Shown here one piece after another: positions 7,362-63,582 of a stretch of DNA of 64,000 nucleotides. The notes under the pieces are model-generated. The model worked only from the letters and a program-made list of their open reading frames with translations. It had not been told where the DNA came from and did no database searches. Each line of letters opens with the position of its first letter. The stretch's first letter is position 1. The translations under genes and the position numbers were made by a program. Source of the DNA: Candidatus Berkelbacteria bacterium (lineage in GTDB: Bacteria > Patescibacteriota > UBA1384 > XYA2-FULL-43-10 > CAINNR01); contig JBAXAF010000001.1 of the NCBI GenBank assembly GCA_037142675.1, forward strand, positions 28,543 to 92,542, given 5' to 3'.

Positions 7362-7390
7362 TTGACAAAATATTCAATTAATGATATTCT
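7362..7390 (+). promoter_or_regulatory. Sigma70-like promoter TTGACA-N17-TATTCT upstream of GC-rich ORF 7445
   Basis: Exact -35 hexamer, 17-nt AT-rich spacer, -10 TATTCT, about 55 nt before ATG. Confidence 0.5.
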
Positions 7391-9447: not shown

Positions 9448-9453
9448 ATGTTT

Positions 9454-9522
9454 TGTCATTCCGGACTTGATCCGGAATCTCTATCAAAAGTAATTAGATC
9501 CTGAATCAAGTTCAGGATGACA
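9454..9522 (+). repeat. Family-1 double-hairpin REP-like element, copy A (TGTCAT-[TTCCGGA..TCCGGAA]-spacer-[CCTGAA..TTCAGG]-ATGACA)
   Basis: Terminal 6-bp inverted repeat TGTCAT/ATGACA plus two internal hairpins; intercistronic between the ABC permease and ATPase. Confidence 0.6.
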
Positions 9523-11945: not shown

Positions 11946-12107
11946 CTACTTGTCAGATTTGACAGCGGTACGCAAACAACGGGTGCAGAGAACTGTACCG
12001 TTAACTTTTTGTAGATTTGGCTTGAAAAGACGTTTGGTATGTCGCTGTGAATGGGAAACATTCGAGCCGACAACCTTGGCTTTTCCACAGATTGAGCAAA
12101 TGGCCAT
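11946..12107 (-). CDS. rpmB: 50S ribosomal protein L28 (53 aa, below the ORF-track cutoff)
   Basis: Translation [53 protein letters not shown] matches the L28 pattern (N-terminal Cys pair, SHSxxxTKRxFxPNLQ). Confidence 0.8.
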
Positions 12108-12279
12108 GATATTTAGTTTAAAACTAATAACGAATAACTAACAACCGCAACTTATAACAATTCAACTTCCAAAATTGAATCAAATTTGTTACAATACTTA
12201 AGAATTCTAACATAAATGTTTTAAAAATTCAACTTTCCAAAACTATTTGTTATTCACTTTTAGCTATTAGTTAATTATT

Positions 12280-16552: not shown

Positions 16553-17262
16553 AAATAGCTATAATAGTATGTGTTGCAGCAGTTTTTGTCATAATTGCCT
16601 TTCGTTTCCCGAAGACGGGCAATTTATCTTTGGCAAAACGGGAAAAATCTTTTGACGATGAGGCGGCAATACTTGAGGCAAAAAAGATTTTGAATGAAAA
16701 GTCGCCCGAAGATTTACCGGAGGTTCTGCCCGCAGGAGTTGAGCCGACAGATGAACTTGATGCTTATGATGAAGAATTATCTGAGCTTCTAAAATCTGCT
16801 AGGGAAAAAATCGACAGTGGGAAATACGCTTCAGCAGAGAATATCTTAATCGATGCCATCTGCAAGGATAGCAAATGCGCTTGGGCATATGAGCGGCTGG
16901 GTCATGTGTATTTAATGATTGGGAAGAATTTGAATGACGCAACCGAGTCATTTCTTATGGCAACCAAAATTGATCGCGGCAATGACAGCGCTTGGTTTGG
17001 TCTCGGGCAAATTTATTTTTCTGAAGCTCATTTTAATAAAGCGATCGATGCTTTTTCCAAAGCAGTAAATATTTCTCGCACAGACGCGCAGTATTTGGCG
17101 GCGTTAGGCAAAGCGTACTTGGAAGTCCGACAATATGGCAAGGCGTCAAAATCATTGAAGCGTGCGGCATCACTCGACATTTCGAACGTTGAATATAAAA
17201 AATTGGCCTCATTCGCTGAAGATAAACATCGCGAGCACTCACGCGCATCAAAGCTTAGTTAA
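16546..17262 (+). CDS. Membrane-anchored TPR-repeat protein
   Basis: N-terminal TM, then TPR-like repeats (AWxxLGxxY patterns). Confidence 0.55.
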   Translation: MLEIAIIVCVAAVFVIIAFRFPKTGNLSLAKREKSFDDEAAILEAKKILNEKSPEDLPEVLPAGVEPTDELDAYDEELSELLKSAREKIDSGKYASAENILIDAICKDSKCAWAYERLGHVYLMIGKNLNDATESFLMATKIDRGNDSAWFGLGQIYFSEAHFNKAIDAFSKAVNISRTDAQYLAALGKAYLEVRQYGKASKSLKRAASLDISNVEYKKLASFAEDKHREHSRASKLS

Positions 17263-31066: not shown

Positions 31067-32269
31067 ATGATGAGATTTAAATACAGGGCGAAAAATGATC
31101 GCGGCGACATGGTCGGCGGCGTTGTTCGAGCTGATAATGTTTTGGCCGCAGAAAAGATTCTGCGTTCAAATAATCTGGTTACCGTCGACATTTTCCCCGA
31201 AACCACTGAGGTTTTTTCGGTTTTTGGAATTCGCAAAAAGGTTTCTCTTAGAGACAAGGCTATTTTTTCCAGCCAGCTTTCCACTATGGTTTCTGCTGGT
31301 TTGTCGTTGCCAAAGTCAATCAACATTATTGCGGCCCAAACTGATAATCAGTATCTCAAAAGTATTTTTTATAACGTCAACCGCGACCTAGAAGAAGGGT
31401 TGAATTTCTCATCTTCATTGGCAAAATACCCGGATGTTTTCGACGAGCTTTTTGTTAATGTTGTTAGGTCGGGCGAATCAACCGGTAACCTTGAAACAGT
31501 AATGCAGCGAATGTCAGAGAAAATTGATAAAGATCAAAATTTGTCTGCCAAACTTTTCTCAGCAATGATTTACCCAATCTTCATTATTGTAGCTTTAATT
31601 GGTGTCGGCTGGTTATTACTGGTGAAAATTGTGCCGCAAATTGAATCTGTTTTTAAAGATTCCAACGCCGCTCTTCCTTGGGCGACATCGACCTTAATTT
31701 CCATTTCCCATTTTCTCTCCGGCTACTGGTGGATAATATTATTAGCTGTGCTTTTACTTGTATTTTTTGGTCGCTATTATCTGGCCACAAATCAAGGTAA
31801 GGCCTTTTACGCCAAGGCACAATTAAGCATCCCAGGGTTCAAGAAGGTGTCATCAGATGTCTATATGGCAAGGTTCTGTCGAACAATTCAAATGCTTTTT
31901 GAGTCGGGTGTGCCGCTTTTGGACGCAATTAACACAACCGGTAACGTTATGGTAAACAGCTACTACAAAAGTTCGCTCCAAAGAATTTCAAAAGAGGTTC
32001 AAAAAGGTGTATCATTAAGTGTAGAACTTTCTAAGGATCCATTGTACCCACCGCTAATTAGCCAAATGATGGCGGTTGGCGAGCAAACCGGTAAATCTGC
32101 TGATGTAATGGAGAAATTGGCTAAGTTTTATGAAGACGAAGCTCAGAACGCAATCAGTGGTGTATATTCATTGGTTGAGCCGCTAGCTATGGTTCTTGTA
32201 GGCATTGGAGTGGCTGTCTTAGTTTTTGCTATATTAGTTCCAATATATCAAATAGCACAAATGCAGTAA
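31067..32269 (+). CDS. pilC: Type IV pilus platform protein PilC (GspF family)
   Basis: Two GspF repeats, three TM segments, position after pilT. Confidence 0.85.
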   Translation: MMRFKYRAKNDRGDMVGGVVRADNVLAAEKILRSNNLVTVDIFPETTEVFSVFGIRKKVSLRDKAIFSSQLSTMVSAGLSLPKSINIIAAQTDNQYLKSIFYNVNRDLEEGLNFSSSLAKYPDVFDELFVNVVRSGESTGNLETVMQRMSEKIDKDQNLSAKLFSAMIYPIFIIVALIGVGWLLLVKIVPQIESVFKDSNAALPWATSTLISISHFLSGYWWIILLAVLLLVFFGRYYLATNQGKAFYAKAQLSIPGFKKVSSDVYMARFCRTIQMLFESGVPLLDAINTTGNVMVNSYYKSSLQRISKEVQKGVSLSVELSKDPLYPPLISQMMAVGEQTGKSADVMEKLAKFYEDEAQNAISGVYSLVEPLAMVLVGIGVAVLVFAILVPIYQIAQMQ

Positions 32270-32330
32270 GCCGCGGTCGGTCGGTAGCATTGAATTGCTA
32301 ATTTAGTTAAATATTTATTTAGGAGGAAAA

Positions 32331-32849
32331 ATGAAGAGTAGAAAAGCCTTTACATTAATTGAGCTTCTTATTGTTATCGCCATTATTGGCATTTTGGCTG
32401 CTGTTATCTTTGTCAGCTTGAACGCTGCTAGAAAGAAAGCCTATGATGCGCAAGTTAAGAGCGACATGACATCGCTTTCACAGGCCCTTGAGATTGTTAA
32501 GATAGACAGAACCTTGCCAGGATTTAATTGGTCCACACTTGTAGATGTCCCTTCAACCGTTGCCACTTCAAATGATGCCAATATTGCTCGCTGGACAGAC
32601 AGTGGTGATGCTACAACCGGTAATCGATTGGTTCCGAAACTACCTACTAATCCAAATGGTGGCGTTTATGGCATTCACATTATTGCTGGCAACTCTTACT
32701 CCATGGTTGGCGCACTTAGTGTCGCGAACAAATTTTACTGCATTAAAGACGGCCAATCCAAAGAGTTTACTGCGGTTGCAACCGCCGCCGCTGGGACAAC
32801 TCCAGCAGCCACCAATCTTCAAAATGCTCATACGGCGTGTGATTCCTAG
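32331..32849 (+). CDS. Type IV pilin (copy 1)
   Basis: Class III signal MKSRKA|FTLIELLIVIAIIGILAAV, C-terminal Cys pair, RBS AGGAGG. Confidence 0.8.
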   Translation: MKSRKAFTLIELLIVIAIIGILAAVIFVSLNAARKKAYDAQVKSDMTSLSQALEIVKIDRTLPGFNWSTLVDVPSTVATSNDANIARWTDSGDATTGNRLVPKLPTNPNGGVYGIHIIAGNSYSMVGALSVANKFYCIKDGQSKEFTAVATAAAGTTPAATNLQNAHTACDS

Positions 32850-32873
32850 AAGTGATTCTTAGCTTTTGTTAAT

Positions 32874-32909
32874 GTTTGTCCCGCTTCTAGCGGGACAAAC
32901 TTGTTTTTT
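32874..32909 (+). terminator. Intrinsic terminator after pilin 1 (identical copy after pilin 2 at 33730-33765)
   Basis: TTTGTCCCGC-TTCTA-GCGGGACAAA stem-loop plus T-run. Confidence 0.6.
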
Positions 32910-32924
32910 CTACCATATATTTAT

Positions 32925-33030
32925 GGTAAATAGCTACTACAAAAGTTCACTGTAAATAATTTCAAAAGAGCTCCAAAAAGTGTATCATTATAAGTGTAGA
33001 ACTTTACAAATAGCACAAATGCAGTAAGCC
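32925..33030 (+). pseudogene. Degenerate partial copy of the pilC 3' end (duplication remnant)
   Basis: About 80% identity to pilC 31940-32010 plus the last 35 nt of pilC/intergenic (AAATAGCACAAATGCAGTAAGCCGCGGTCGG...), internal deletion, frame destroyed. Confidence 0.55.
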
Positions 33031-33079
33031 GCGGTCGGTCGGTAGCATTGAATTGCTAATTTAGTTAAATATTTATTTA

Positions 33080-33131
33080 CCCCTGTTAAATGCGCCTACG
33101 GCGCAACTCGCGAAACGAGTATTTAACGGGG
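33080..33131 (+). repeat. Family-2 structured palindromic element, copy 2, inserted between the duplicated pilin promoter and its RBS
   Basis: CCCCTGTTAAAT...ATTTAACGGGG enclosing hairpins GCGCC-TAC-GGCGC and ACTCG-CGAAA-CGAGT; absent from the otherwise identical region upstream of pilin 1. Confidence 0.55.
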
Positions 33132-33143
33132 TGTAGGAGGAAA

Positions 33144-33701
33144 ATGCGAAAAGTAATGCAGTCCGCCTGTGGCGGAAAGAGTAGAAAAGCCTTTACATTA
33201 ATTGAGCTTCTTATTGTTATCGCCATTATTGGCATATTGGCTGCCGTTATCTTTGTTAGTTTGAACGCTGCCAGAAAGAAAGCCTACGATGCGCAAGTTA
33301 AGAGCGATATGACATCACTTTCACAGGCCCTTGAGATTGTTAAAATTGATAGGCCTCTAACCCCAATGCCACTAGCTTTCACGCAGCTTATATATGATAA
33401 GGATAATCTTGGCACATCTGACAGAAATATTGCTCGCTGGACAGACAGTGGTGATGCCGCAACTGGAGGCAGGTTAGTGCCAAAGCTTCCAATTAACCAA
33501 AATAATTCTTCATATTTTATCAACATCGGACCTACATCGAGCGATTATGCGCTTATTAGCGCGCTTAGTATTCCTAACAAGTTTTTCTGTGTTCACAATG
33601 GACAGTCGTTTGAAATTATTGGTGTAGCCACAGCTGCGGCTGGCACCACTCCTGCCGTTCCTGTTTTTACAGATGCAAAAAATCAGTGCGCTACGTCCTA
33701 G
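33144..33701 (+). CDS. Type IV pilin (copy 2, divergent C-terminus)
   Basis: MRKVMQSACGGKSRKA|FTLIELLIVIAIIGILAAV; N-terminal 50 aa nearly identical to pilin 1; RBS GGAGGAAA. Confidence 0.75.
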   Translation: MRKVMQSACGGKSRKAFTLIELLIVIAIIGILAAVIFVSLNAARKKAYDAQVKSDMTSLSQALEIVKIDRPLTPMPLAFTQLIYDKDNLGTSDRNIARWTDSGDAATGGRLVPKLPINQNNSSYFINIGPTSSDYALISALSIPNKFFCVHNGQSFEIIGVATAAAGTTPAVPVFTDAKNQCATS

Positions 33702-33772
33702 CCTAGCGTGTCCTTTGCGTATATGGAAAGTTTGTCCCGCTTCTAGCGGGACAAACTTGTTTTTGCTAAGAT

Positions 33773-34534
33773 ATGTTTATGGCAGTAGCTTTAATTTTTT
33801 TGCTGGTCGGCTTGTTTGTTGGCAGTTTTTTAAATGTGCTAATTTTTCGCTTTCCTGAGATGAAAGGCTTGGTTTCTGGCCGCTCCTATTGTCCTCACTG
33901 TAAAAAAACCATTGCTTGGTTCGATCTTATTCCGGTTGCGAGCTATATTATTCTTTGGGGTAAGTGTCGAAATTGTCGAAAACAAATATCATTGCAATAT
34001 CCACTGGTTGAAATATCTACTGGAATCGTCTTTTTTTTCTTGGCAAAAACAATTGGTGTTGACTACCCACTAATCGGCTATTTGTTGATCGCTTGTGTAT
34101 CTATGTTAATTTTCGTATATGACGCCAAGTTTCTTGAAATTCCTGAAGTTTTTTCCTGGTTGCTGTTGATTTCCGCAATCGTGCTTACGGTACTTAGTTC
34201 AAGTTTTTCTATAAACGATTTTCTATTAGGTGGCTTAATTGGCGGTGGTGTACTGGGAATTATGGTGGGTATTTCGGAAGAACGGATGATGGGATCAGGC
34301 GACATCAAAATTGGTCTAGCTTTTGGTTTTTTGCTCGGTGCCCACAGATCAATCCTGTTTTTATTTTTATCGTTTATTATTGGTGCTATTGTCGGTTTAA
34401 TCCTAATGATGTCTAGCAAGAAAAAAGTGCAGTCAGAAATTGCTTTTGCGCCTTTTTTAATTATAGCAGCCCTAATTTGTATTATTTGGGGTAACCAGCT
34501 AGTTAATTTGTGCCAAAAATTTGCTATGATATAA
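33773..34534 (+). CDS. pilD: Prepilin peptidase PilD (A24 family)
   Basis: N-terminal CxxC..CxxC zinc motif (CPHCKK..CRNCRK), eight TMs, catalytic Asp region. Confidence 0.85.
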   Translation: MFMAVALIFLLVGLFVGSFLNVLIFRFPEMKGLVSGRSYCPHCKKTIAWFDLIPVASYIILWGKCRNCRKQISLQYPLVEISTGIVFFFLAKTIGVDYPLIGYLLIACVSMLIFVYDAKFLEIPEVFSWLLLISAIVLTVLSSSFSINDFLLGGLIGGGVLGIMVGISEERMMGSGDIKIGLAFGFLLGAHRSILFLFLSFIIGAIVGLILMMSSKKKVQSEIAFAPFLIIAALICIIWGNQLVNLCQKFAMI

Positions 34535-37945: not shown

Positions 37946-37985
37946 TTTGTCATTGCGAGGAGATGTGCGACGTGGCAATCTCATT

Positions 37986-38054
37986 TGTCATTCCGGACTT
38001 GATCCGGAATCTATCTAATAGTTTTTTGGATCCTGAATCAAGTTCAGGATGACA
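37986..38054 (+). repeat. Family-1 double-hairpin element, copy B (nearly identical to copy A), preceded by an extra partial left end (37948-37956 TGTCATTGC)
   Basis: TGTCATTCCGGACTTGATCCGGAAT...CCTGAATCAAGTTCAGGATGACA; ends 10 nt before the DUF167 ATG. Confidence 0.6.
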
Positions 38055-38286: not shown

Positions 38287-38349
38287 TACTATATAAGCAC
38301 AGCTTTTAACGCCTCGTGTCCGCTTCGCGGGGCTATTGAATCTTGTTAT

Positions 38350-38378
38350 AAAAAAAGCCGCGCCCCAGTTGGGGCACG
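38350..38378 (-). terminator. Intrinsic terminator for the GC-rich minus-strand gene, followed (minus sense) by TTTTTTTATAACAAGA (7 T's; complement of plus-strand AAAAAAA 38350-38356)
   Basis: GCCCCA-ACT-GGGGC hairpin plus T-run; the downstream T6-ATAACAAGAT string is shared with the terminator at 47021-47052. Confidence 0.5.
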
Positions 38379-38392
38379 AGCCAGATGAACTA

Positions 38393-38881
38393 TCACTCTT
38401 TCCAGCCGACATATTTCAGCTGGCGGACTGCTTGTAGCGGCTTCAGTTGAACTGCAGGAAACTTTTGAGCGTGGCGGACGATGGTGCGGCCCTCCACTTT
38501 CCCCATAATGAACACCCGCGTGAAGCCACATCGGGGGCAACCTTGCAGATCTGCCATTCCGTGACTGTATCCGTCGAAGTCGCGGGCGGGTTTTTGCGAT
38601 AATGCAACTTCGCTGAAGCATCGCAGACAGACTTTGCTCATGTCAATGATAAAGTTTTCCGCGGAACACTTCAGGCAAGATACAGGCTGTGCTCCTATTA
38701 CAATGTAAGCATCAGCCACCAGCGTCGGGTACGCTTCTACTGCTTCAGCCAACCGGTAGTCGTGCTCGCAGTTGTTCTGGATCTCCTCGAGCTGCTTGGC
38801 GAGCTTGTCCAGTTCTGTCTGGAGCCTGATGGCTTCGTTCTTTGGCCGTTTGCATTTAGGTGCTAGCGTTAGGTTGTGCAT
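38393..38881 (-). CDS. Hypothetical Cys-rich protein from a moderately GC-rich ORF (about 55% by eye)
   Basis: Start MHNLTLAP with RBS AAAGGAG at 7-nt spacing; CxxC..CxxC pairs; terminator downstream. Confidence 0.45.
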   Translation of the reverse strand: MHNLTLAPKCKRPKNEAIRLQTELDKLAKQLEEIQNNCEHDYRLAEAVEAYPTLVADAYIVIGAQPVSCLKCSAENFIIDMSKVCLRCFSEVALSQKPARDFDGYSHGMADLQGCPRCGFTRVFIMGKVEGRTIVRHAQKFPAVQLKPLQAVRQLKYVGWKE

Positions 38882-43152: not shown

Positions 43153-43188
43153 ATCTATCAGTAGATTCCCGTTTCAGCGGGAATGACA
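43153..43188 (+). repeat. Family-1 element, right half only (ATCTATCAGTAGATTCCCG-TTTCAG-CGGGAATGACA)
   Basis: Matches the right hairpin and terminus of copies C/D with a compensatory stem; abuts the rplU RBS AGGAG. Confidence 0.5.
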
Positions 43189-46942: not shown

Positions 46943-47020
46943 GCGCTCTGTATGCTTTCAGCTTCATTATTAATCGCTTCATCCTCGAACTAAAGTTTGA
47001 GGTTTTCGCTATCTTGTTAT

Positions 47021-47052
47021 AAAAAACACCGCCCATTACGTCGGACGGTGTG
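47021..47052 (-). terminator. Intrinsic terminator after the GC-rich gene 47080..47508, followed by TTTTTTATAACAAGAT
   Basis: CACCG..CGGTG hairpin plus T-run on the minus strand. Confidence 0.5.
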
Positions 47053-47079: not shown

Positions 47080-47508
47080 CTAGAAGCCGTTGGTGTGATC
47101 ACCGCTCTGATGACCAGCCGGCGGGTCGGTGAGGCGAAGGTCATTCGGATCGGGTTGCGGCGGGATGCCATGTTGAGGAGGTGGGGCATTCTTGTTCAAG
47201 GCCTCAATCATAGCGCGGTCGTCGATTACAACTGTGATGATCGGTCCAGAACTGTCATGAACTGGTGCCAGTGCCGCTTGCGCAGGTGATGGCGACCGCT
47301 TGACAGCCTGGTACTGCTCCTCGTCGACCATTACCATCCAGCGATACCACCGACCAAGGTGGTCAAGTTTCCAGACAATGTCGGAGCCGGTGACCTTTCC
47401 GACCTGGTTGGAGCGGCAGAGCCGATAGTTGTCCATGCCGGCCGAAATGCCAAACAGGACAACCGCTACCCACAGAACCAACCCGATAAACGTCAGGTTA
47501 TCTTTCAT
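47080..47508 (-). CDS. Hypothetical membrane-anchored protein from a high-GC ORF
   Basis: Start MKDNLTF with RBS GAGGCGAGAG; N-terminal TM FIGLVLWVAVVLFGI; Pro-rich C-terminus. Confidence 0.45.
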   Translation of the reverse strand: MKDNLTFIGLVLWVAVVLFGISAGMDNYRLCRSNQVGKVTGSDIVWKLDHLGRWYRWMVMVDEEQYQAVKRSPSPAQAALAPVHDSSGPIITVVIDDRAMIEALNKNAPPPQHGIPPQPDPNDLRLTDPPAGHQSGDHTNGF

Positions 47509-52580: not shown

Positions 52581-53921
52581 ATGAAATTGTATAACACTTT
52601 GTCAAAATCTGTTGAGGAATTTAAGCCGCAGGACGAAAAAAACGTTAAGCTCTACACTTGCGGCCCAACAGTTTATAACTATGCTCACATTGGTAATTTG
52701 CGGACGTATATTTTTGAAGACGTTTTGCGTCGATCGCTGGAATTCTTAGGATATGCCGTTGATCACGTAATGAACATGACTGATGTTGACGATAAAACCA
52801 TTAAAGCTTCTGGTGGCAAGCAGGTAGAATTTAAGGAACTAACGCAAAAGTTTGAAGAAGCATTCTTGTCGGATCTGAAAAAATTAAACATTGAAAAGCC
52901 GACGGAAATTACCAGGGCAACGGAATATATTGAGCAAATTGTTGATTTCGTTTCTGATCTAATAGATCGGGGTTTTGCATACAAGGGTGAAGATGGCTCA
53001 ATTTATTTTTCAATCGAAAAATTTGCTGGCTACGGAAAATTATCTGGTCTGGACAAGGATGGAATAAAATCCGGCGCCAGAGTTTCTCAGGACGAATATA
53101 CTAAAGAGAATCCTGCAGATTTTGCACTTTGGAAGGCTTGGGACGAAGTTGATGGCGAGATCTTTTGGGATACTAAGCTGGGCAAGGGCCGACCTGGTTG
53201 GCATATTGAGTGTTCGGCTATGAGTCAGGACAAATTGGGTAACACGCTAGATATTCATGCCGGCGCAGTTGACCTAATTTTTCCTCATCATGAGAATGAA
53301 ATTGCTCAGTCCGAAGCCCGAACCGGCAAAAAATTTGTAAATTATTGGGTTCATGCGGAACATCTTTTGGTTGATGGCAAAAAAATGTCCAAGAGTTTAG
53401 ATAATTTTTACAAGCTTTCCGGCATTGAGGCCAAAGGTTTTTCACCGCTGGATTTTCGCTATATGTGTTTGTCGGCCAGTTATCGCGATAAACTCAACTT
53501 CACTTGGGAATCGCTGGAAGCCGCAGCCAATGCGTTAAAACGAGCAAGAAAAATTATAACTAGCATCGATGATGGCAGAAAAGTTAACGAAGAATACATG
53601 TCAAAATTCAAATCAGCGGTTGAAAATGATCTGAATACTCCGGAGGCGCTGGCAGTTTTTTGGAACCTTTTGCGTGATGAGAAAGTGTCAGCAGGTGATA
53701 AAAAAGCTACCGCGTTGGAAATGGATAAAATTTTCTCTTTGGATCTAAATAAAATTTCCAATGATGAAATTCCTGCCAATGTTTTGAAATTAGTTAATGA
53801 AAGGATTGCAGCTCGCAAAGAGAAAGATTTTGAGTTATCTGATAAAATTCGTGGTCAAATTGAAGAACTCGGGTTTTCGGTCGAAGACGCTGGTGACCAG
53901 TCAAAAGTTGTGAAGAAGTAG
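52581..53921 (+). CDS. cysS: Cysteinyl-tRNA synthetase
   Basis: HIGH (AHIGNLRTY), KMSKSLDN, zinc-binding Cys (C..C..H..E). Confidence 0.9.
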   Translation: MKLYNTLSKSVEEFKPQDEKNVKLYTCGPTVYNYAHIGNLRTYIFEDVLRRSLEFLGYAVDHVMNMTDVDDKTIKASGGKQVEFKELTQKFEEAFLSDLKKLNIEKPTEITRATEYIEQIVDFVSDLIDRGFAYKGEDGSIYFSIEKFAGYGKLSGLDKDGIKSGARVSQDEYTKENPADFALWKAWDEVDGEIFWDTKLGKGRPGWHIECSAMSQDKLGNTLDIHAGAVDLIFPHHENEIAQSEARTGKKFVNYWVHAEHLLVDGKKMSKSLDNFYKLSGIEAKGFSPLDFRYMCLSASYRDKLNFTWESLEAAANALKRARKIITSIDDGRKVNEEYMSKFKSAVENDLNTPEALAVFWNLLRDEKVSAGDKKATALEMDKIFSLDLNKISNDEIPANVLKLVNERIAARKEKDFELSDKIRGQIEELGFSVEDAGDQSKVVKK

Positions 53922-53975
53922 CACTATAAAAAGAAAAGCGCCACAGTGGCGCATGCCATGTGGCGGGAAGTGTGT

Positions 53976-53996
53976 AAGGCCCAGTGGGCCTTTTTT
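53976..53996 (+). terminator. Intrinsic terminator after cysS
   Basis: GGCCCA-GT-GGGCC followed by T6. Confidence 0.5.
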
Positions 53997-55108
53997 GATT
54001 GTGGGGCTGCCCAGTTTGTCGCCGGTTTAGCTGGTGACAACTCTGATCCGAAGATCACAGTACTGGGTTTTGCTGGTTTGGAACCAGCTGGTTTCGGATC
54101 CTTCCGATGCTTGTTGCCAGCATTTCTGCCGGCAAATCGGGAAGAGGAATTTCCCATAGTAACTGTCCCAAGCGTCCGAGCCAACCGATCACCGAAGTGA
54201 TCAAGAATACTTCTGCGGCTTTTATGAACGAGTACAAAGACCGTCCAAGCGCGCATCGGAAATGTCCGATTGAAGCATCTTTTGGTGGCCCAGGCGTCAG
54301 GGACAGACTTGTAATAAGTGTCCCGACGGGGCCACCAGGTGAACTTTGAACGGGGACTTGTTCGCAGTTCATTTGGGGCTCAGCATGGTCAGTGCTAATG
54401 TCCTTTTATTGGCGACAATCGCCAGACCATGGCCATTAAAGTCGGCGCTAGCTGGGATTTAAGCGCTTTCCTTTTGACAGCTGCACTTTAGCATATACTA
54501 TATAGATCTGTCAATAGGCACGGTGAAATAAAAAAGCACCCGAGGGAACGTTGAGTTGTCCCAAGGGTGCCGCTGGTCTGCGACTTGGCGTGCCTAGGCT
54601 ACGCCAACCGCGTTCTGCGCTCGGTTCCCCGAGTGCGGAATCGGTACTTCATGAAGTGAAATTCCTCCACCCCGTATTGGGGTCCATGGAATGATTCGGC
54701 TGCTTGTTGCTGGCCGGATTATCAGCATCTAATCGCGTTGATTGATGCCAATATTTCCGGCCGGGCCGGGCCCGCGCTGGTCTAGCTGCCGCCGGTGCTG
54801 ATCGCCGCCGCGCCCACGTCGTCCTGGACGAGCTGGGGAATCATACCGATGCTGGTGGCCTTGTTCTCGCCGCTGCTGCAGTTATTCACTATCGGAGTCA
54901 TGCCCAAACATAACCTGCGTCTGTGCCTCATGGCACTCACCTTGTCCACTCCCATTGCCGGGAGGTAATGAAGCTCCGCTGCTTTCCGCGCTGTCAACTT
55001 CCCAGTCTTGCCCACGGATTGCAACTTTGCTTTTGCTATGTTGGCGGAGCCCACCAATTTTTGTGGGTCACTGTGTGTCTACCCTCGATCCTCCACCAAA
55101 CTGAAAAC

Positions 55109-55138
55109 ATATTATCATATACTAAAAGTTTTGTCAAT
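55109..55138 (-). promoter_or_regulatory. Minus-strand promoter TTGACA-N18-TAATAT directing transcription into the GC-rich block 54535-55100
   Basis: Reverse complement reads TTGACAAAACTTTTAGTATATGATAATAT; matching minus-strand intrinsic terminator at about 54535-54575. Confidence 0.4.
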
Positions 55139-55206
55139 AGTTTTTCTAAAAAACTAATAGCTGTCAGCTGCTAGCTTTTAGAAAGAAAATCAGTTATAAT
55201 TCTGGC

Positions 55207-56199
55207 ATGAAAAATTGTTGGCAGAAATTAAAAAGACCAATTCTAATGTTGTCGCCGATGGCGGGGTACACCGACTCGGCTTTTCGGATTGTTTGCAAAA
55301 ACCAAGGTGCGAATTTGTTGATGACCGAATTAATTTCTGCCGACGCTATTGCTCATTGGGCGAAGAAAGCTAATGGCTATCAGCTGTCAGCTAGCAGCTT
55401 TTCGAAAAGCCCGACATACAAGCTAATGGAATTTCAAAAAGCCGAAATGCCAATTATTGTTCAGCTATTTGGCAAGCACCCGGAGAAGTTCGCTATTGCC
55501 GCTAAGTGGATTGAAGAAAATTTGAAACCGGCGGGAATTGACATTAATATGGGATGTCCGGCAAAAAAAGTTGTAAAATCCGATCACGGAGCTACGCTAC
55601 TGCGCGACCAAGAACGAGGTGTTGCGGTTGTCGAAGCGGTGCGAGCAGCAACAAAATTGCCGCTGTCAGTCAAAACTAGGCTGGGCTGGGAGAGCGATAA
55701 TGAAATTCTAGAATTTGCCCCAAAACTAATTGCGGCTGGAGTTGACGCATTAATTATCCATGGCAGAACATATAAAGATGGGTTCGCTGGAGATGCGCGA
55801 TGGGAAAATATATATAAGGTAAAAGCTAATAGTTGTCAGCTGTCAGCTGTTAAGGTAATTGGCAATGGAGACATTCGAAATCAAACGAATATAAAAGAAA
55901 GGTTAGGGAATTTAGACGGTGTGGCGATTGGTCGCGGCGCGGTTGGTAATCCTTTTATATTTAACAGTGACTTTGCCAAACTGTCCGAAAGCCAAGTGCT
56001 GGAACTAAAAAAGAAAACAATTTTAGAGCATGCAAAGTTAGCTTTTGAAATTAAAGGCGAGAAGGGGATTGTTGAACTAAGGAAACATTTGCTGGCCTAT
56101 TTCAAAGGACACCCAAGGGCAAAAGAACTACGAAAATCGTTTGTAACAGTTAAAAATGTTTCAGAAATTAAAATTGCGCTAACTGCTATTGACAAATAG
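55207..56199 (+). CDS. tRNA-dihydrouridine synthase (Dus/NifR3 family)
   Basis: SPMAGYTDSAFR, FMN-binding TIM-barrel motifs (INMGCPAKKV, catalytic Cys); carries two in-frame copies of a short repeat (see findings). Confidence 0.85.
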   Translation: MKNCWQKLKRPILMLSPMAGYTDSAFRIVCKNQGANLLMTELISADAIAHWAKKANGYQLSASSFSKSPTYKLMEFQKAEMPIIVQLFGKHPEKFAIAAKWIEENLKPAGIDINMGCPAKKVVKSDHGATLLRDQERGVAVVEAVRAATKLPLSVKTRLGWESDNEILEFAPKLIAAGVDALIIHGRTYKDGFAGDARWENIYKVKANSCQLSAVKVIGNGDIRNQTNIKERLGNLDGVAIGRGAVGNPFIFNSDFAKLSESQVLELKKKTILEHAKLAFEIKGEKGIVELRKHLLAYFKGHPRAKELRKSFVTVKNVSEIKIALTAIDK

Positions 56200-56246
56200 C
56201 TAACAAAGTGCTAGACTTGATTTGTTCAAGGAAAGGGGATTAAAAA

Positions 56247-56270
56247 AGAGGAGCGGGAACCTCCTTTTTT
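56247..56270 (+). terminator. Intrinsic terminator after dus
   Basis: AGGAG-CGGGAAC-CTCCT followed by T6. Confidence 0.5.
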
Positions 56271-56602
56271 GTATCACTGGAGCGTTTAATTCGAGAAGTA
56301 GAAGTTTGATTCGAAAAATGTTCAAAACATTTTTCTGGGGAGAATTATCAAATTTCACTACTCGATATACTGACTTGTAGGCAGAAGTATAGCTGGGATT
56401 TAGGGACCTATGGGCAGAAGGATTTTTAAACTAGCGGCATTTCGACCCCATAAACTATGTGGGTCAGCCGCGAAGTTGCCTTCTGCTTCTCTCCTTTTTC
56501 CTGGCTAGACTTCTGCCTTCTTTTTTTCCGGCTTGCCGGTTCAAGATAGAGGAACAGACCTGCGCCGCAACGCGGGCAGGACCACATTGGAGGTGACGCA
56601 TC

Positions 56603-57694
56603 ATGCGTCGCACAGGTTTGGCAGTTGTAGTCGCTCTGGTGCTGGCCCTCACCGCTACGGCGGTATTGGGCGGGGGATTCGTCCTCGACAGCATCGTGGC
56701 TCAAGTGTATTCCGAGAAAGTGACGATGGTGGATGCAGGAGTATCCACTTACGCCAACTACTCGGATACGATGAGCGGCACGATCAACGGAGTCGCGCCC
56801 AACGCCGGCAATGTCACGGCGCTTTGGGACAAGTTTGGCGTAACGAACGAGACACGGTGGCTGCGAATTGTCACTGTTGTCAAGGACGTTAAGAGCCAAC
56901 AGATCATCGACATCAAGCAGGCCTTTGTCACTCCGGAGAACAAGCAGACCAACGACGGCATCGTATGCAAGGTCGTTAGTCCGTACGAGATCTGGATCGA
57001 CACACAGAGCCTGCCCGAATTCACGAGGTTTTCGCCCGTTGTGGTTCAGAACGCCTCGACCAAGGAGCACCGCATCATCTGGATCTTCCGCTCGGTTAGC
57101 CATATCGAGCGCGAGAACTCGGCCGACGTGTTCATCACTCGGCTCGATATCTCAGATGAGTTGTCGGAGGATCTGGTCGGAGGACAGCCGCAACTGGGTC
57201 TGACGCAGACACTGCTCGAGAGCAAGGACCGCCCCAAGGCAGTCTCGCGCCTACTTCGGGCGTACGTTTACTCGAGGTACCCGATTCAGCTGACCAGGAC
57301 ATCGGCGCCGTATCAAATCGTGGCCGATGGTCGGGCCCAGGCTGTTCAGGGCATGGCCCAGGACCAGACGCGCGATGCTATCGCCAGGCTGACTGCTGCC
57401 TATGAGAAACAGGCCGCGGAAAGCAAGGCGACTATCGACAACTTGGTCCAGAAGCTGAACGCGTCAAAGCCTCAGAATTGGAGTATTGGGGTCGGCCCCT
57501 CTCCGACTGGCGCTTGGTACGTTTGGCTCGATGGCGGGCCCAAAATGCGCGTTGCCGCTGACACTGTCAGTTTCAACACGCTGCTGGGCACTCACTGGGT
57601 CGAAGTTGTACCTGAAGGTGACGCGTTCAAGAGTTGGCACCGCTGCGTTGTGACGCAAGCGGGCCAGCAGCTCGACTACGCGGAGGTGAAGTAG
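56603..57694 (+). CDS. Secreted hypothetical protein from a high-GC ORF
   Basis: RBS GGAGGTGACGC, signal peptide MRRTGLAVVVALVLALTATAVLG; about 60% GC by eye. Confidence 0.5.
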   Translation: MRRTGLAVVVALVLALTATAVLGGGFVLDSIVAQVYSEKVTMVDAGVSTYANYSDTMSGTINGVAPNAGNVTALWDKFGVTNETRWLRIVTVVKDVKSQQIIDIKQAFVTPENKQTNDGIVCKVVSPYEIWIDTQSLPEFTRFSPVVVQNASTKEHRIIWIFRSVSHIERENSADVFITRLDISDELSEDLVGGQPQLGLTQTLLESKDRPKAVSRLLRAYVYSRYPIQLTRTSAPYQIVADGRAQAVQGMAQDQTRDAIARLTAAYEKQAAESKATIDNLVQKLNASKPQNWSIGVGPSPTGAWYVWLDGGPKMRVAADTVSFNTLLGTHWVEVVPEGDAFKSWHRCVVTQAGQQLDYAEVK

Positions 57695-57695
57695 G

Positions 57696-58634
57696 ATGAA
57701 GTCGCAAAGGTTGTTTCTGTTTGGTTTTGCACTGTTGCTCTGCGTTGCAGGTTTTGCGCAGGGGCAGCAGGCCTTGACCGCTAATGTCGCCGTGACTGAG
57801 GCTAGGACCGATACCCCGTTTAGCATCACCTGGGGAACGGTTATGCCTCTGGCCGGCCACATCTTCGCGCAGCCTTGGCTCAAATCATGCAAGGCAGTGT
57901 GGAGCGACTATTACCCGTCCCCGGCTCGTTTGACCACGGTCTACGATTGCCCTGCAAAGGGTGACAGTCTGACCCCGGTCAACGACGTCGCTGGGCAGAG
58001 GCCCTGCTGGGTTTTCTGGAAGGAAAAGGGGGTCTGCGGTGCCGCGGTGGAGAGAGGCGATAGGGGGAACTTTATCGTTTCGACGTTCACCATCATCGGC
58101 GGTATCAAGGAAGTCGTACACGAAACCACGGTGGAGAGAACGCGTACTGAGTATGTCGAAACACCAGGACGCGTGGACACAGTCTTTGTCAGCACTCGGG
58201 GGTACATTCCTCCTGCTGGCATAACTGCCGTCGGAACTACCAACCTGTCTATCCCCTCGGGGCATGAGAACATTGGCCCTGAAGAAGGAAAGCTCTATCT
58301 TGGTTTCCGTCGCACTGTGAACACTCCGGCGGTTTGTCCGCCGAAACCGCCCAACCCGCCTCCTCCGCCCCCAAGTGGGCCGACCTGTCCGCCGGGGACC
58401 CCGAATCCCCCTAACCCGCCCAGCTCGCCCGAGGTGAACGTGCCTCCGCACGATCCTTCTACCCCTGTGGTGCCTGGCGGGGACTCCGTTCCCCCAGGCG
58501 TTGGGCCACCCCCGCCGGCACCGCCGGACCACGGGATTATCACACCCGACCCGGGCGAACCACCTACGCCTCCGCATATGCCCACCCCAGATGGTGAGCA
58601 TCAAGCGGACCCGGTGGATCCGACAACGCTGTAA
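57696..58634 (+). CDS. Secreted hypothetical protein from a high-GC ORF with Pro-rich C-terminal tail
   Basis: Signal peptide MKSQRLFLFGFALLLCVAGFAQG; C-terminal PPKPPNPPPPPPSGP...; start codon 1 nt after the upstream stop. Confidence 0.5.
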   Translation: MKSQRLFLFGFALLLCVAGFAQGQQALTANVAVTEARTDTPFSITWGTVMPLAGHIFAQPWLKSCKAVWSDYYPSPARLTTVYDCPAKGDSLTPVNDVAGQRPCWVFWKEKGVCGAAVERGDRGNFIVSTFTIIGGIKEVVHETTVERTRTEYVETPGRVDTVFVSTRGYIPPAGITAVGTTNLSIPSGHENIGPEEGKLYLGFRRTVNTPAVCPPKPPNPPPPPPSGPTCPPGTPNPPNPPSSPEVNVPPHDPSTPVVPGGDSVPPGVGPPPPAPPDHGIITPDPGEPPTPPHMPTPDGEHQADPVDPTTL

Positions 58635-60386: not shown

Positions 60387-62471
60387 ATGAACAGATTCAA
60401 AAAATTTCTTAAGCGGATGCAGCCAAAAGCCAAGTATATACTAGGTATTTTGGGAATCGCCGCAATCGTTTCGCAGGGAGCGTTTGCCTTCACAAAAATT
60501 TCAGCCACCGAACCGAGATTTAACTTTCTCTCCGGTGACTATGAAATGTTCCGTGGGGCAAACTTAACTGCCGCTGACACAGCTTGGAAAGATCCTATTT
60601 CCGGAACTGCTAATGACACCTACCAGGGCCTGATTTATTATCACAATGGTATGGTTAATACTACAGCCGAGAATACTACGATCAAAGTTACAATTCCAAG
60701 TCAGACAACTAGCAAAACCGCGACTCTATCAGCTTCAATTTCTGCTGATAATGCCGCAACCGTCACTGATACTATTATTGACGGTCAAGTAGTTGGACTG
60801 TCTGGTTTAACTGTAAGCCTGGACAAAGACGCAAGCCTTGCGTTGGTTCCTGGTTCGGTTAAATGGTATCCTGGCAACGGAACATCTGCCCAAAACGATA
60901 AAGCTTTGAATTCAGAGTCAGCTTTACCAAATGGCCAGAGTGGTAATTCAATTGATGACGCGGGTATTAACATTGGTGGTATTCAAGGTTGTTGGGACTT
61001 CGCAGGTTATGTTACCTTCGATTTCAAAGCTACCCCAATTACCAATGTTGCCCTCGACGTTGATAAAACAGTTCGCAATGTTACCGCTGGTGAAACAAAC
61101 TTTGTTGAGCTAACAAATGCTGCGAAGTCTGAAGTGGTTGAATTCAAAATTGATGCAACCAATACTGGTGACACTACAGCTAATAATCTTAAAGTTAAAG
61201 ACGCGTTGCCAGCTGATTTGACCTTTGTCCCGGGATCAATGAAAATTGCCCGCGACGGTTCAAGTACTTTTGACAATGTTACCGATGCCAATGCTGCGCT
61301 AGTTTTTGCTGGCGGTTGGACTGCTGGTAATCTTCAGGCTGGAGACGATAAAGCCGATGTTATTACTTTTGAAGCCAAAGCTCCAACCAGTATCAGCGCT
61401 GTTAAAACTGTTACAAATACAGCAACTGTTTCCTCCGGTGCGATTTCAGATTCTGACACCGCTCAGGTAAAGTTGCAGGTAACTGCTGCTCCAAACCTAA
61501 TCAAAAACAAAAGTGCCAAGAATCTATCAACTGGCCAAGTTTCAGCACAAAGCGGCGAAGTTAAAGCGCTTGATGCTAAGCCGGGCGACACAATCGAATA
61601 TACTTTGATTACTAAAAATATCGGCGATGCCGCTTCCAATAACCATGTTATTAAAGACGGTGTCAACGATGTTCTACAGGAATCAAACTTTGTTTCCGCT
61701 TCAAACGGTGGACATGTTGTTAACACGGGATTGACTGGAAATGATTCTAAGCAAATCCAATACGACGCAGTAGACATTGCTCCAGATCAAACTGTTGAGC
61801 GAACATTCACTGTCAAGGTTATGGATCCTTTGCCAAACAATCCAGCTTCCGGATATGACTTCGACCACAAACTGTATAACATCTATGGTGATACAGTTTT
61901 GGTTACGATTTCTATCCCAGCACCTCCTCCAGTTGCTCCAATTCTTCACATCAGCAAAACTGTTCGCGATTTCACTATTAACGAATTAAACTTTGTCGAT
62001 AGTAATACCGCAACAGCTGGCGATACACTAGAGTATATGATTTCCTTCTCCAATACCGGTAACGGCCCAGCCGACTTAGTTAAATTCTCAGATATTCTGC
62101 CTGCCGGCGTTGCCTATATTCCTGGCACAACCATTCTTTCAGTTAATGGTGGCCAAGAACATACAATGCCAGACGGAATCATTGCTGACGGTGTAATGTT
62201 TGATACTGTTGCTGCCGGAGATACTGGCTATATTAAGCTTAAAGCAGTCTCTGCCGCAACAATTGCCGCCAACACAGTTTTGACCAATACTGCCAACCTA
62301 ATTGATAACAACGTCACAATTTCCGATACAGCACAGACCACAGTTAAAGCTCCGATCGTTGTTGCTTCAGCTCCACTTCCACGAACAGGCGCAGACAGCC
62401 TTCCAATCGCTGCTGTCGCCTCAGTTCTTCTGTCAGCTGGTTCAATGTTGGTTATCCGCAGATTCGTCTAA
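60387..62471 (+). CDS. DUF11-repeat surface protein with LPxTG-type cell-wall sorting signal
   Basis: C-terminus LPRTG + hydrophobic stretch + RRFV; repeated ...NTGD..A.N..VKD.LP.. units. Confidence 0.7.
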   Translation: MNRFKKFLKRMQPKAKYILGILGIAAIVSQGAFAFTKISATEPRFNFLSGDYEMFRGANLTAADTAWKDPISGTANDTYQGLIYYHNGMVNTTAENTTIKVTIPSQTTSKTATLSASISADNAATVTDTIIDGQVVGLSGLTVSLDKDASLALVPGSVKWYPGNGTSAQNDKALNSESALPNGQSGNSIDDAGINIGGIQGCWDFAGYVTFDFKATPITNVALDVDKTVRNVTAGETNFVELTNAAKSEVVEFKIDATNTGDTTANNLKVKDALPADLTFVPGSMKIARDGSSTFDNVTDANAALVFAGGWTAGNLQAGDDKADVITFEAKAPTSISAVKTVTNTATVSSGAISDSDTAQVKLQVTAAPNLIKNKSAKNLSTGQVSAQSGEVKALDAKPGDTIEYTLITKNIGDAASNNHVIKDGVNDVLQESNFVSASNGGHVVNTGLTGNDSKQIQYDAVDIAPDQTVERTFTVKVMDPLPNNPASGYDFDHKLYNIYGDTVLVTISIPAPPPVAPILHISKTVRDFTINELNFVDSNTATAGDTLEYMISFSNTGNGPADLVKFSDILPAGVAYIPGTTILSVNGGQEHTMPDGIIADGVMFDTVAAGDTGYIKLKAVSAATIAANTVLTNTANLIDNNVTISDTAQTTVKAPIVVASAPLPRTGADSLPIAAVASVLLSAGSMLVIRRFV

Positions 62472-62626
62472 TCGACTTATAACAAGATGTGATAGTGTGC
62501 CCTTGGGCACCACAAGGCGTTAAAAGCCGAATGAAATGAGGCTTATAGGGAAAATTATTTAGGGGGATAATCGTCCTGTCAGATAGAAAAAAGCCTTCGA
62601 GAAATCGGAGGCTTTTTTCGTACGTA

Positions 62627-62655
62627 TTGACAAAACAACAAAAATAATATATACT
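62627..62655 (+). promoter_or_regulatory. Promoter TTGACA-N17-TATACT upstream of GC-rich ORF 62733
   Basis: Exact spacing; preceded by terminator 62587-62619; module duplicated at 63374-63402. Confidence 0.5.
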
Positions 62656-62732
62656 GCTGCCATAACTGCTTTGGCAGTTCAATCCTGCATAGCTGATGAT
62701 CATACGTGATCTTAGGCGATTGGAGACTGAAA

Positions 62733-63260
62733 ATGAGACCAATGACGTGGGACGAGCTTAACCGTATCTACTGGGGCAGGGACTTGATACGAGTCTCATG
62801 GGAAGAGAACGGCTGCGTGAGGAAGGTCAGGATCCTCATAATGCACCATGAGGACCGATACGGGAGCCATGGTGCGTATGTCTTTAGCCAGAGCCTCACA
62901 TATGCCGATAACCCCAACTGGCGTGGCGCTGACAGTGGCTTCCACTGGCAGTTTGATCCTCAGGTATCAGCTGAGAACCCGTCGCAGGGCCTCGTCACCT
63001 TCCTGAATGATCTGGCTGTCCCCGAACTTTGGCGGACGATGGATGACATCGTTTTCTGCCAGAAGATCGGCAAAGGGTCCTATAAGAAGATCGGCAACTG
63101 CAGCCTGAAGGTTCTTCGGCAGTTGGAGCGCTTTGTCGGGCGGCTTGAGACCACCCAGGGCCTCGATCACCGTGTGCTTCACCGCACGAAGGGGATGCTC
63201 GACCAGGCGTTCAATGAGATCATGGCGTCCTCGGCGAAGCTCCACACTGCCTTGAGCTAA
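62733..63260 (+). CDS. Hypothetical protein from a high-GC ORF
   Basis: RBS GGAGACTGAAA; nested-hairpin terminator with T7 at 63270-63307. Confidence 0.45.
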   Translation: MRPMTWDELNRIYWGRDLIRVSWEENGCVRKVRILIMHHEDRYGSHGAYVFSQSLTYADNPNWRGADSGFHWQFDPQVSAENPSQGLVTFLNDLAVPELWRTMDDIVFCQKIGKGSYKKIGNCSLKVLRQLERFVGRLETTQGLDHRVLHRTKGMLDQAFNEIMASSAKLHTALS

Positions 63261-63373
63261 CTTGTCCGTCCGCCGCGCCCCACGTATTGGGGTCCGGCGG
63301 TTTTTTTATTACCCCAAGAATCGGAGGCCTTTTTCGTGTCTTGCCGTGAAGTGAAATTGGTTTGTTCCATCGG

Positions 63374-63402
63374 TTGACAAAGTATATCAAATATGATATA
63401 CT
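63374..63402 (+). promoter_or_regulatory. Promoter TTGACA-N17-TATACT upstream of GC-rich ORF 63583
   Basis: GGTTGACAAAGTATATCAAATATGATATACT; shares the AATCGGAGGCYTTTTTCGT upstream block with the 62627 module. Confidence 0.5.
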
Positions 63403-63582
63403 TATTTCACGTTGCTGGAACGATTACGTTTCAGCAGTAAAAGCTAAATCTGCTCTTTCGTTGCGGCAACTGAGCAGATGTCAAGAAGTTCCGGAAGCAC
63501 ACCGGATTATCAAAAACTGCACAATGCCGCCCGATCGCTAATATGCGATCTGGTAATTTCCCCACTAATAGGGGGAAGTCAA

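Follow-up and report, generated by a model that had tools for sequence, protein, structure and literature searches.

Near the end of a 64,000-nucleotide (nt) stretch of Candidatus Berkelbacteria DNA, here called the window, two GC-rich open reading frames (ORFs) stand head to tail, each preceded by the same short block and the same promoter hexamers. How did such a tandem arise in an AT-rich genome? An initial annotation had proposed that a duplicated terminator-promoter module drives both ORFs and that GC-rich cargo is installed behind it by a cassette-like mechanism. Our analysis leads to a plainer answer, since the finding breaks down into a terminator of the host, a promoter of consensus type and a single scar of recombination, all of them ordinary. 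We consider it probable that the gap separating prfB from a gene for a DUF11 surface protein has long been a hypervariable intergenic slot in this lineage, one that here houses two GC-rich ORFans (C10 and C11), the repeated block being a half-copy of the terminator at a tandem junction and the promoters being of the host's standard type. The wider pattern of ORFan units that are GC-rich, persistently so, turn over fast and lie under consensus promoters is unusual and unexplained.

The window sequence is carried by contig CAZGMR010000011.1 (assembly GCA_964526775.1). Since the layout of block, promoter and ORF is the same in six independent assemblies, it is no assembly artifact. We compared the region with the relatives at loci L007, L008, L009, L087, L088, L090 and L091, and surveyed GC-rich units in the window and the 9 kb downstream of it. 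Positions marked L001 belong to a locus whose coordinates run past the window end.

The repeated block is one half of a host terminator

The block AATCGGAGGCYTTTTTCGT lies at 62603-62621 and again at 63319-63337, with 18 of 19 positions identical. The shared block of about 20 nt that had been annotated is thus real, as a 19-mer at these two places only: no further copy is found in the window at up to three mismatches, where chance would give 0.06 matches. The likeness between the copies stretches loosely to about 22 nt (AGAAATCGG and AAGAATCGG).

Copy 1 belongs to the gene upstream. The product of this host gene (60387-62471, plus strand) is a surface protein of 694 aa that carries DUF11/CLIPPER repeats and, at its C terminus, an LPRTG sorting signal (Pfam matches DUF11, DUF7619 and DUF7507), and a DUF11/LPXTG gene is kept in L007, L087, L088, L090 and L091. 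A hairpin on the plus strand (62586-62619; inverted repeat I2) begins 115 nt past its stop codon and consists of a 15-bp stem, GAAAAAAGCCTTCGA / TCGGAGGCTTTTTTC, closed by a GAAA loop. Its A-run and T-run form part of the stem, and its RNA fold reaches -22.4 kcal/mol (z = -6.9). As a stable stem-loop that closes a gene at its 3' end and runs into a T/U tract, it is a predicted intrinsic terminator of the bidirectional type; the same combination is found in T1 and T2, the predicted terminators of C10 and C11. Copy 1 (62603-62621, plus strand) corresponds to the 3' arm, the T-tract and the CGT of this DUF11 terminator.

Copy 2 (63319-63337, plus strand) is of a different nature. It has no complementary 5' arm, the fold of the surrounding segment (63305-63375) is at the level of shuffled sequence (z = 0.02), and it lacks the features of an intrinsic terminator. 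In L087, L088 and L007, an orthologous full hairpin occurs as a single copy after the same gene, with a TTGACA-type promoter directly next to it. Since copy 2 has no 5' arm and the relatives carry the full hairpin once, copy 2 is an orphan 3' half-terminator, and it looks like a recombination scar.

The promoters are of the host's standard type

As annotated, TTGACA-N17-TATACT follows both block copies. The two predicted promoters, P1 (62627-62655) and P2 (63374-63402, with an extended -10 TG), lie on the plus strand and each match the sigma-70 consensus at 11 of 12 positions, their hexamers being 17 nt apart; P1 is the putative resident promoter of the slot. They are, however, no closer to each other than unrelated pairs are. 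P1 and P2 agree at 21 of 29 positions, which ranks 11th among the 105 pairs formed by 15 promoters of this type (mean 17.4, standard deviation 2.3), and the top of this matrix is taken by P1 and the promoter at the same position in L088 (25/29). The block ends 5 nt before the promoter at copy 1 and 36 nt before it at copy 2. Because these distances differ and the promoters agree at consensus positions but in their spacers no more than chance would give, the block of 19-22 nt is the only true duplication. The annotated duplication of a terminator-promoter module therefore stands in part: the block does occur twice with the same hexamers after each copy, but the promoters are not duplicates and copy 2 is half a terminator. 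The hexamers shared by P1 and P2 are the organism's standard strong promoter and not a duplicated element.

Several lines of evidence place this promoter type with the host. Positional equivalents of P1 follow the terminator in L087 and L007, and in L007 no ORF separates the equivalent from the prfB ATG, which comes 7 nt downstream of it, and there it appears to drive prfB directly, without cargo. The predicted terminator and P1 are thus host intergenic sequence, orthologous in L087, L088 and L007. In the genome studied here, rplJ is preceded by the same promoter type (ATTGACAAAT...TATAGT), which L007 has kept and L008 and L009 have kept more loosely, in each case without a GC-rich insert ahead of it, and the type also occurs ahead of PBP1A and of the first DUF11 gene. 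Its presence at rplJ without an insert, at PBP1A and at the first DUF11 gene argues that the TTGACAAA-type sequence is the clade's native, predicted strong sigma-70 promoter and is not borne by the cargo.

Similar promoters had also been annotated elsewhere, and those at 7362-7390 (plus strand) and 55137-55109 (minus strand) are present. The weaker plus-strand site at 54474-54501 exists as well, but an overlapping minus-strand site (54514-54485), which faces the GC-rich unit at 54372-53924, reads better.

Two further features of these promoter regions may be recorded. A perfect 10-nt inverted repeat, I11 (AAGTATATCA / TGATATACTT, 63380-63389 / 63394-63403, 4 nt apart), overlaps the P2 spacer and -10 and is a possible operator. 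In every relative, a -10-like hexamer lies 6-7 nt before the prfB ATG (L001 ~12090-12116, L007 9985-10003, L087 7140-7164, L008 655-676, L090 ~4300-4320, L091 ~5980-6003), which suggests that the prfB mRNA may be leaderless in this clade.

C10 and C11 are unrelated ORFans

A GC-rich ORF lies downstream of each block copy (62733-63260 and 63583 onwards), as the annotation had it. C10 (62733-63260, plus strand) encodes 175 aa and is preceded by a GGAG Shine-Dalgarno sequence ~8 nt ahead of its ATG. Its GC content is 0.56, with 0.55, 0.40 and 0.74 at the first, second and third codon positions (the last hereafter GC3; 0.28-0.42 in host genes). C11 (63583-64000, plus strand) is cut by the window end; in full it encodes 165 aa and ends at L001 11348, with a GC content of 0.56 and a GC3 of 0.65. 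The neighboring genes have a GC content of ~0.40-0.44. The predicted leader of C11 is ~173 nt long, against ~70 nt for C10.

Among 5.8 billion proteins, C10 and C11 each find only themselves, and the cargo, C10 included, has no match in Pfam, PHROG, NCBIfam, PADLOC or PDB sequences. An exhaustive HMMER search with C10 returned weak, repeat-summed matches to giant Big_9/cadherin proteins, which are inflated by the repeats, and a single-sequence AlphaFold model reached a predicted local distance difference test (pLDDT) score of 46. As a side observation, C10 residues ~44-106 (62865-63050) show a weak likeness to one Big_9/cadherin-like Ig repeat, with the motif HG...SLTY..NW.G.DS; against a single Big_9 repeat the BLAST E-value is ~1e-4, although C10 itself has no Pfam match. 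A viral origin was considered and set aside, four cargo proteins having no close relatives in IMG/VR and the cargo no PHROG matches.

While the ORFs are unrelated, their terminators are alike. T1, behind C10 (63270-63307, plus strand), is a hairpin CCGCCGCGCCCCA-CGTAT-TGGGGTCCGGCGG followed by T7. T2, behind C11 (L001 11357-11397), is ~80% identical to T1 and 85% identical to the terminator of the L087 cargo. The cargo terminators T1, T2, L087, L088 and L008 resemble each other, and the ORFs ahead of them are unrelated save for one pair in L088 and L008, described below.

The slot turns over in relatives

Ordered by prfB, the relatives form the series (((window, L087), L088, L007), L008, L090), L091, and the content of the gap between the DUF11 gene and prfB changes along it. 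There is nothing in the slot in L007, L090 and L091, so that C10 and C11 are lineage-specific insertions, and to this extent the initial annotation, which took them for acquired cargo, is supported. In L087 the slot holds X1, an unrelated GC-rich ORF of 175 aa; in L088 it holds X2, a GC-rich ORF of 152 aa, together with a PaaX-like gene; in L008 it holds X3, a homologue of X2; and in the window lineage it holds C10, C11 and a PaaX-like gene. C10, C11 and the L087 ORF are mutually unrelated in any reading frame, and all-against-all blastp and tblastx comparison of the cargo ORFs was negative except for X2 with X3. The predicted regulatory frame is thus conserved and the ORF turns over.

A second gap behaves comparably. 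Between rplA and rplJ there is nothing in L007, whereas L087 has a short unit that looks non-coding and L008 an AT-rich ORF. In the present genome the gap holds a GC-rich ORFan (L001 16023-16568) of 181 aa with a signal-peptide-like N terminus and with a promoter and a terminator of its own, and directly after the terminator of this insert the native rplJ promoter is kept.

The PaaX-like gene of the slot is a gene of 178 aa with a PaaX_M domain and is AT-rich. Separately from the ORFans, we observe that it has a 42-nt direct repeat on each side (L001 11442-11483 and 12035-12076), itself palindromic (GTGAAAA..ATCGATCGAT..TTTTCAC). The same layout with a different palindrome occurs in L007 (~2400-2450 and 3085-3125) and in L088 (~8270-8330 and 8870-8900), and in L007 the PaaX_M gene lies at another locus. 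It is probable that these repeats serve as paired operators, and the gene seems to travel with them.

How the tandem may have been assembled

The arrangement can be read as follows. The DUF11 terminator, with the near-consensus sigma-70 promoter P1 at once behind it, would form the host-side frame of the slot. The DUF11 transcript would end at 62619, P1 would start the C10 mRNA and T1 would stop it, P2 and T2 would do the same for C11, and the PaaX-like regulator gene and prfB would come next. The C10 and C11 units would each be self-contained, with promoter, leader, ORF and intrinsic terminator. A second slot unit, made of the half-terminator, 36 nt, P2, C11 and T2, would have been joined in tandem to the first, with copy 2 marking the junction. 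Two alleles of the slot would thus have been joined head to tail with the end-point inside the terminator hairpin, leaving the second 3' arm. The most likely route is illegitimate or unequal recombination between slot alleles. Homology-facilitated illegitimate recombination after DNA uptake would be one plausible form of it, uptake being plausible because DprA and type IV pilus genes are present within the window. A C11-only allele would show the full DUF11 terminator joined directly to GTCTTGCCGTGAAG...P2.

A number of points weigh against this account. No strain was found with C10 alone or with C11 alone: the six contigs that bear C10 are 100% identical across the region, and a metagenome scan for strain variation added three relatives. 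The recombination route is one that we infer, and promoter and terminator function is predicted from sequence. The two copies differ at one base (GGCC in one, GGCT in the other), which fits a different allele but is weak evidence. Moreover, the enrichment of consensus promoters at GC-rich units, described below, is unexplained by the slot model alone, and it does not recur among the relatives (2/8 against 7/40), in a comparison that is underpowered and automated and carries wrong-strand ORF calls and long leaders.

A second account is a dedicated system that moves GC-rich ORFs as cassettes. It would be a site-specific or short-homology system acting at the junction of T-run and ATTGACAAA promoter, or at the hairpin, and leaving direct repeats at the borders. 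C10 is flanked by a direct repeat, TATTGACAAATAA lies on both sides of the GC-rich insert between rplA and rplJ (L001 15942 and 16630), and a T-run with ATTGACAAA is found at many cassette borders. ORF bodies are swapped with promoter/leader and terminator kept, and occupied slots are flanked by promoters on both sides, where the empty site of L007 has a single one. We nevertheless regard such a system as unlikely. The scan of the large ORFs in 73 kb found no integrase or transposase domain, the C10 unit has no terminal inverted repeats, and the 19-mer is not dispersed. Repeat lengths and positions vary by unit, most units have none, and the promoters share no homology beyond consensus positions. 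The 13-nt repeat of the C9 pair of GC-rich ORFs (56603-58634) is no insertion scar, for the unit is ancient and L007 has the same words.

The cassette mechanism of the initial annotation is accordingly not upheld: the terminator and P1 behind which cargo was to be installed are host sequence, neither a recombinase (in the ORFs scanned) nor terminal inverted repeats nor dispersed block copies were found, and at least the C9 pair is an old, vertically inherited, fast-evolving resident and not recent cargo. Border repeats were also tried as insertion scars in general and rejected, the 13-nt repeats of C9 and C12 being largely promoter consensus.

Could the second unit instead have arisen in situ, by tandem duplication of one ancestral unit whose copies then diverged? 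The two units do lie head to tail with a period of ~716-747 nt and the same order of parts, and T1 and T2 are ~80% alike. This origin is very unlikely, however, as C10 and C11 share no similarity in DNA or protein in any reading frame, their leaders differ in length (~70 against 173 nt), and a half-terminator predicted to have no function is still 95% identical, unlike what uniform divergence would leave.

Finally, a cis-acting role of the 19-mer, as a site for protein binding or a motif in RNA that co-regulates both ORFs and is kept by selection, would suit its 18/19 identity and its same orientation upstream of both promoters, but this is extremely improbable given the unequal promoter distances (5 and 36 nt), a copy 1 fully explained as a terminator arm, a copy 2 that folds no better than shuffled sequence, and relatives that carry a single copy, always within the hairpin.

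GC-rich units are spread among housekeeping genes

The tandem slot, as we read it, is one case of a wider pattern. The window is core chromosome, with ~42.7% GC, of a Berkelbacteria-like bacterium of the candidate phyla radiation (CPR). It codes for PBP1A, ArgRS, GlnA, IleRS, FtsW, NusG and Mfd, as well as TopA, RecR, CysRS, Dus and two DUF11/CLIPPER surface proteins, and prfB, Pth, rplA, rplJ and rplL lie beyond its end. Between such housekeeping genes, singly or in pairs, lie ~12 GC-rich units in the region surveyed, with a GC content of 0.52-0.61 and a GC3 of 0.61-0.76 (host, 0.28-0.42). All of them carry a terminator, and a near-consensus promoter is missing from only one. On these predicted signals the GC-rich ORFs form transcription units of their own, with a sigma-70 promoter close to consensus and an intrinsic terminator for each, a point on which the initial annotation is supported.

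The promoter is concentrated at these units. Where chance would give 0.04 matches to the pattern TTGACAAA-N15-TANNNT, the window has six, every one of them upstream of a GC-rich unit. A promoter score of at least 11 is reached by 11 of 12 GC-rich units and by 7 of 44 host upstream regions (Fisher p ~2e-6), in a comparison that relies on hand annotation, in which many host regions lie inside operons and the promoter assigned to C9 (56189-56217) may not be the one that drives it directly. The suspicion raised with the initial annotation, that the promoter might be equally frequent at ordinary genes and hence generic, therefore receives a divided answer: it is commoner at GC-rich units, but it is still the organism's generic strong promoter.

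The history of the C9 pair shows that GC-richness need not be recent. It has orthologues at the same position in L087 and L088 (57-60% identity) and distant or mosaic relatives in L007 and L091 (24-41%), all of them GC-rich and all behind a conserved promoter and leader, down to a prfB identity of 62-64%. Because the C9 pair is GC-rich in all relatives, a simple recent transfer is an inadequate explanation; GC-richness is a stable property of this gene class and not simply the mark of recent transfer from a GC-rich donor.

The finding that a reduced CPR genome has ~12 small GC-rich ORFan units amid its housekeeping genes, one of them even separating rplA from rplJ, offers a testable picture of how ultra-small symbiotic bacteria gain or exchange accessory genes without obvious mobile-element machinery, and it raises the question of why a gene class stays GC-rich in an AT-rich genome. 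One could go further and suppose that a Berkelbacteria-like clade at the family level has a class of GC-rich, fast-evolving or ORFan, often secreted genes housed in conserved expression slots, which host promoter/leader and terminator sequences would frame (GC3 0.6-0.78 for the proposed class, ~0.35 for the genomes). The frame would stay in place and the ORF body be exchanged or diverge past recognition. We think this rather unlikely. If true, it would mean either an unrecognized, ORF-precise exchange of cassettes at promoter and terminator sites or an active GC-biased diversification or maintenance of the gene class, and neither process would amount to ordinary horizontal transfer with later amelioration.

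Comparison with known systems

Searches of the literature turned up no relevant account of an equivalent in CPR genomes. Phage morons are independent transcription units, inserted among conserved genes, that bring a promoter and a terminator of their own and deviate in GC content (PMC3594210). The units described here resemble them in several respects: a single ORF has a sigma-70-type promoter and a factor-independent terminator, the GC content deviates from that of the neighbors, the function is unassigned, and units are present or absent between syntenic genes, as in the slot that is empty in L007, L090 and L091. In contrast to morons, they sit in the core chromosome of a CPR bacterium, among CysRS, Dus, prfB, Pth, rplA, rplJ and TopA, and not in a phage or prophage; the upstream promoter belongs to the host locus and is older than the cargo; and part of the GC-rich units have been resident since ancient times. 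The most fitting name for them is moron-like accessory units, seated in chromosomal hotspots of a CPR bacterium.

Chromosomal integration hotspots are hypervariable intergenic slots between conserved core genes. The present loci share with them conserved flanks (the DUF11 gene and prfB; rplA and rplJ), a turnover of content and the absence of a mobility gene from the slot. They differ in that they hold single small ORFans where hotspots hold multi-gene islands, in that all of the cargo is GC-rich although the genome is AT-rich, and in that the regulatory frame is kept and the ORF replaced.

As in integron cassettes, small single-ORF units with a 3' hairpin are stacked head to tail next to unrelated neighbors. 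Unlike those cassettes, which are typically promoterless, the units here have their own promoters and their 3' hairpins are T-run terminators, and unlike integron arrays they are dispersed over many loci. Neither IntI nor attI was found, and no integrase domain in the large ORFs of the 73 kb, where no attC model was run. Insertion of a transposon, insertion sequence (IS) or miniature inverted-repeat transposable element (MITE) was also considered and rejected: the C10 unit lacks terminal inverted repeats, the 19-mer occurs only twice, and the other units have no comparable border repeats.

Rho-independent terminators can be end-points of (homology-facilitated) illegitimate recombination during natural transformation. 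The junction proposed here would fall into this pattern, as it lies inside a strong hairpin, has homologous host sequence on one side and occurs in a genome with competence-type genes (DprA and type IV pilus genes). It differs in that the mechanism is read from a single scar, with no donor allele identified.

Other structured and repeated sequences

Several observations concern individual GC-rich units. Between Dus and the C9 pair, a plus-strand segment of ~150 nt (56365-56518) is 77-83% conserved at the nucleotide level, against 64-72% for the flanking protein genes, with counterparts at L007 3339-3492, L087 ~300-454 and L088 1269-1409. It folds into a long rod of 51 predicted pairs, 17 of them compensatory, mostly from the most distant sequence, and its ends pair (GGCAGAAGT...ACTTCTGCC). 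The segment is a candidate small RNA or structured leader. An Rfam search of 53800-56700 gave no match at E<=1. As for known RNA genes in the GC-rich units, Rfam at gathering thresholds and ARAGORN found only tRNAs, and this explanation was dropped.

Slightly upstream, a TTGACAAA promoter (56189-56217) overlaps the Dus stop codon, with a strong hairpin and T-run (56236-56266) directly next to it, and this block (56189-56266) is kept in L007 behind a different upstream gene. It may be an attenuator or yield a very short transcript, and not serve as the direct promoter of C9.

Two neighboring GC-rich units lie on the minus strand. That at 53924-54514 has a promoter (54514-54485) and a terminator, its ORFs show no codon-position GC pattern (GC3 0.49), and it may be non-coding. 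That at 55137-54530 contains just a short ORF, behind which ~250 nt of GC-rich 3' sequence extend, and L007 keeps the promoter of this unit and not the body. Also on the minus strand, two GC-rich units that are unrelated to each other (ORFs 38393-38881 and 47080-47508) have 16 nt in common after their terminators (38340-38361 and 47011-47032), which read TTTTTTATAACAAGAT on the units' own strand.

The window also holds two intergenic families of palindromes resembling repetitive extragenic palindromic (REP) sequences, TTTGTCATTCCGGACTTGATCCGGAATC...GGATCCTGAATCAAGTTCAGGATGACA and TAGATTCCCGC...GCGGGAATGAC, with sites at 9452-9522, 37984-38054 and L001 ~16780-16850 and, separately, at 43155, 44848 and 47932. 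Two pilin genes at 32249-33782 form a tandem duplication, whose flanks, among them 73 nt of upstream sequence as well as the terminators, show 89-100% identity.

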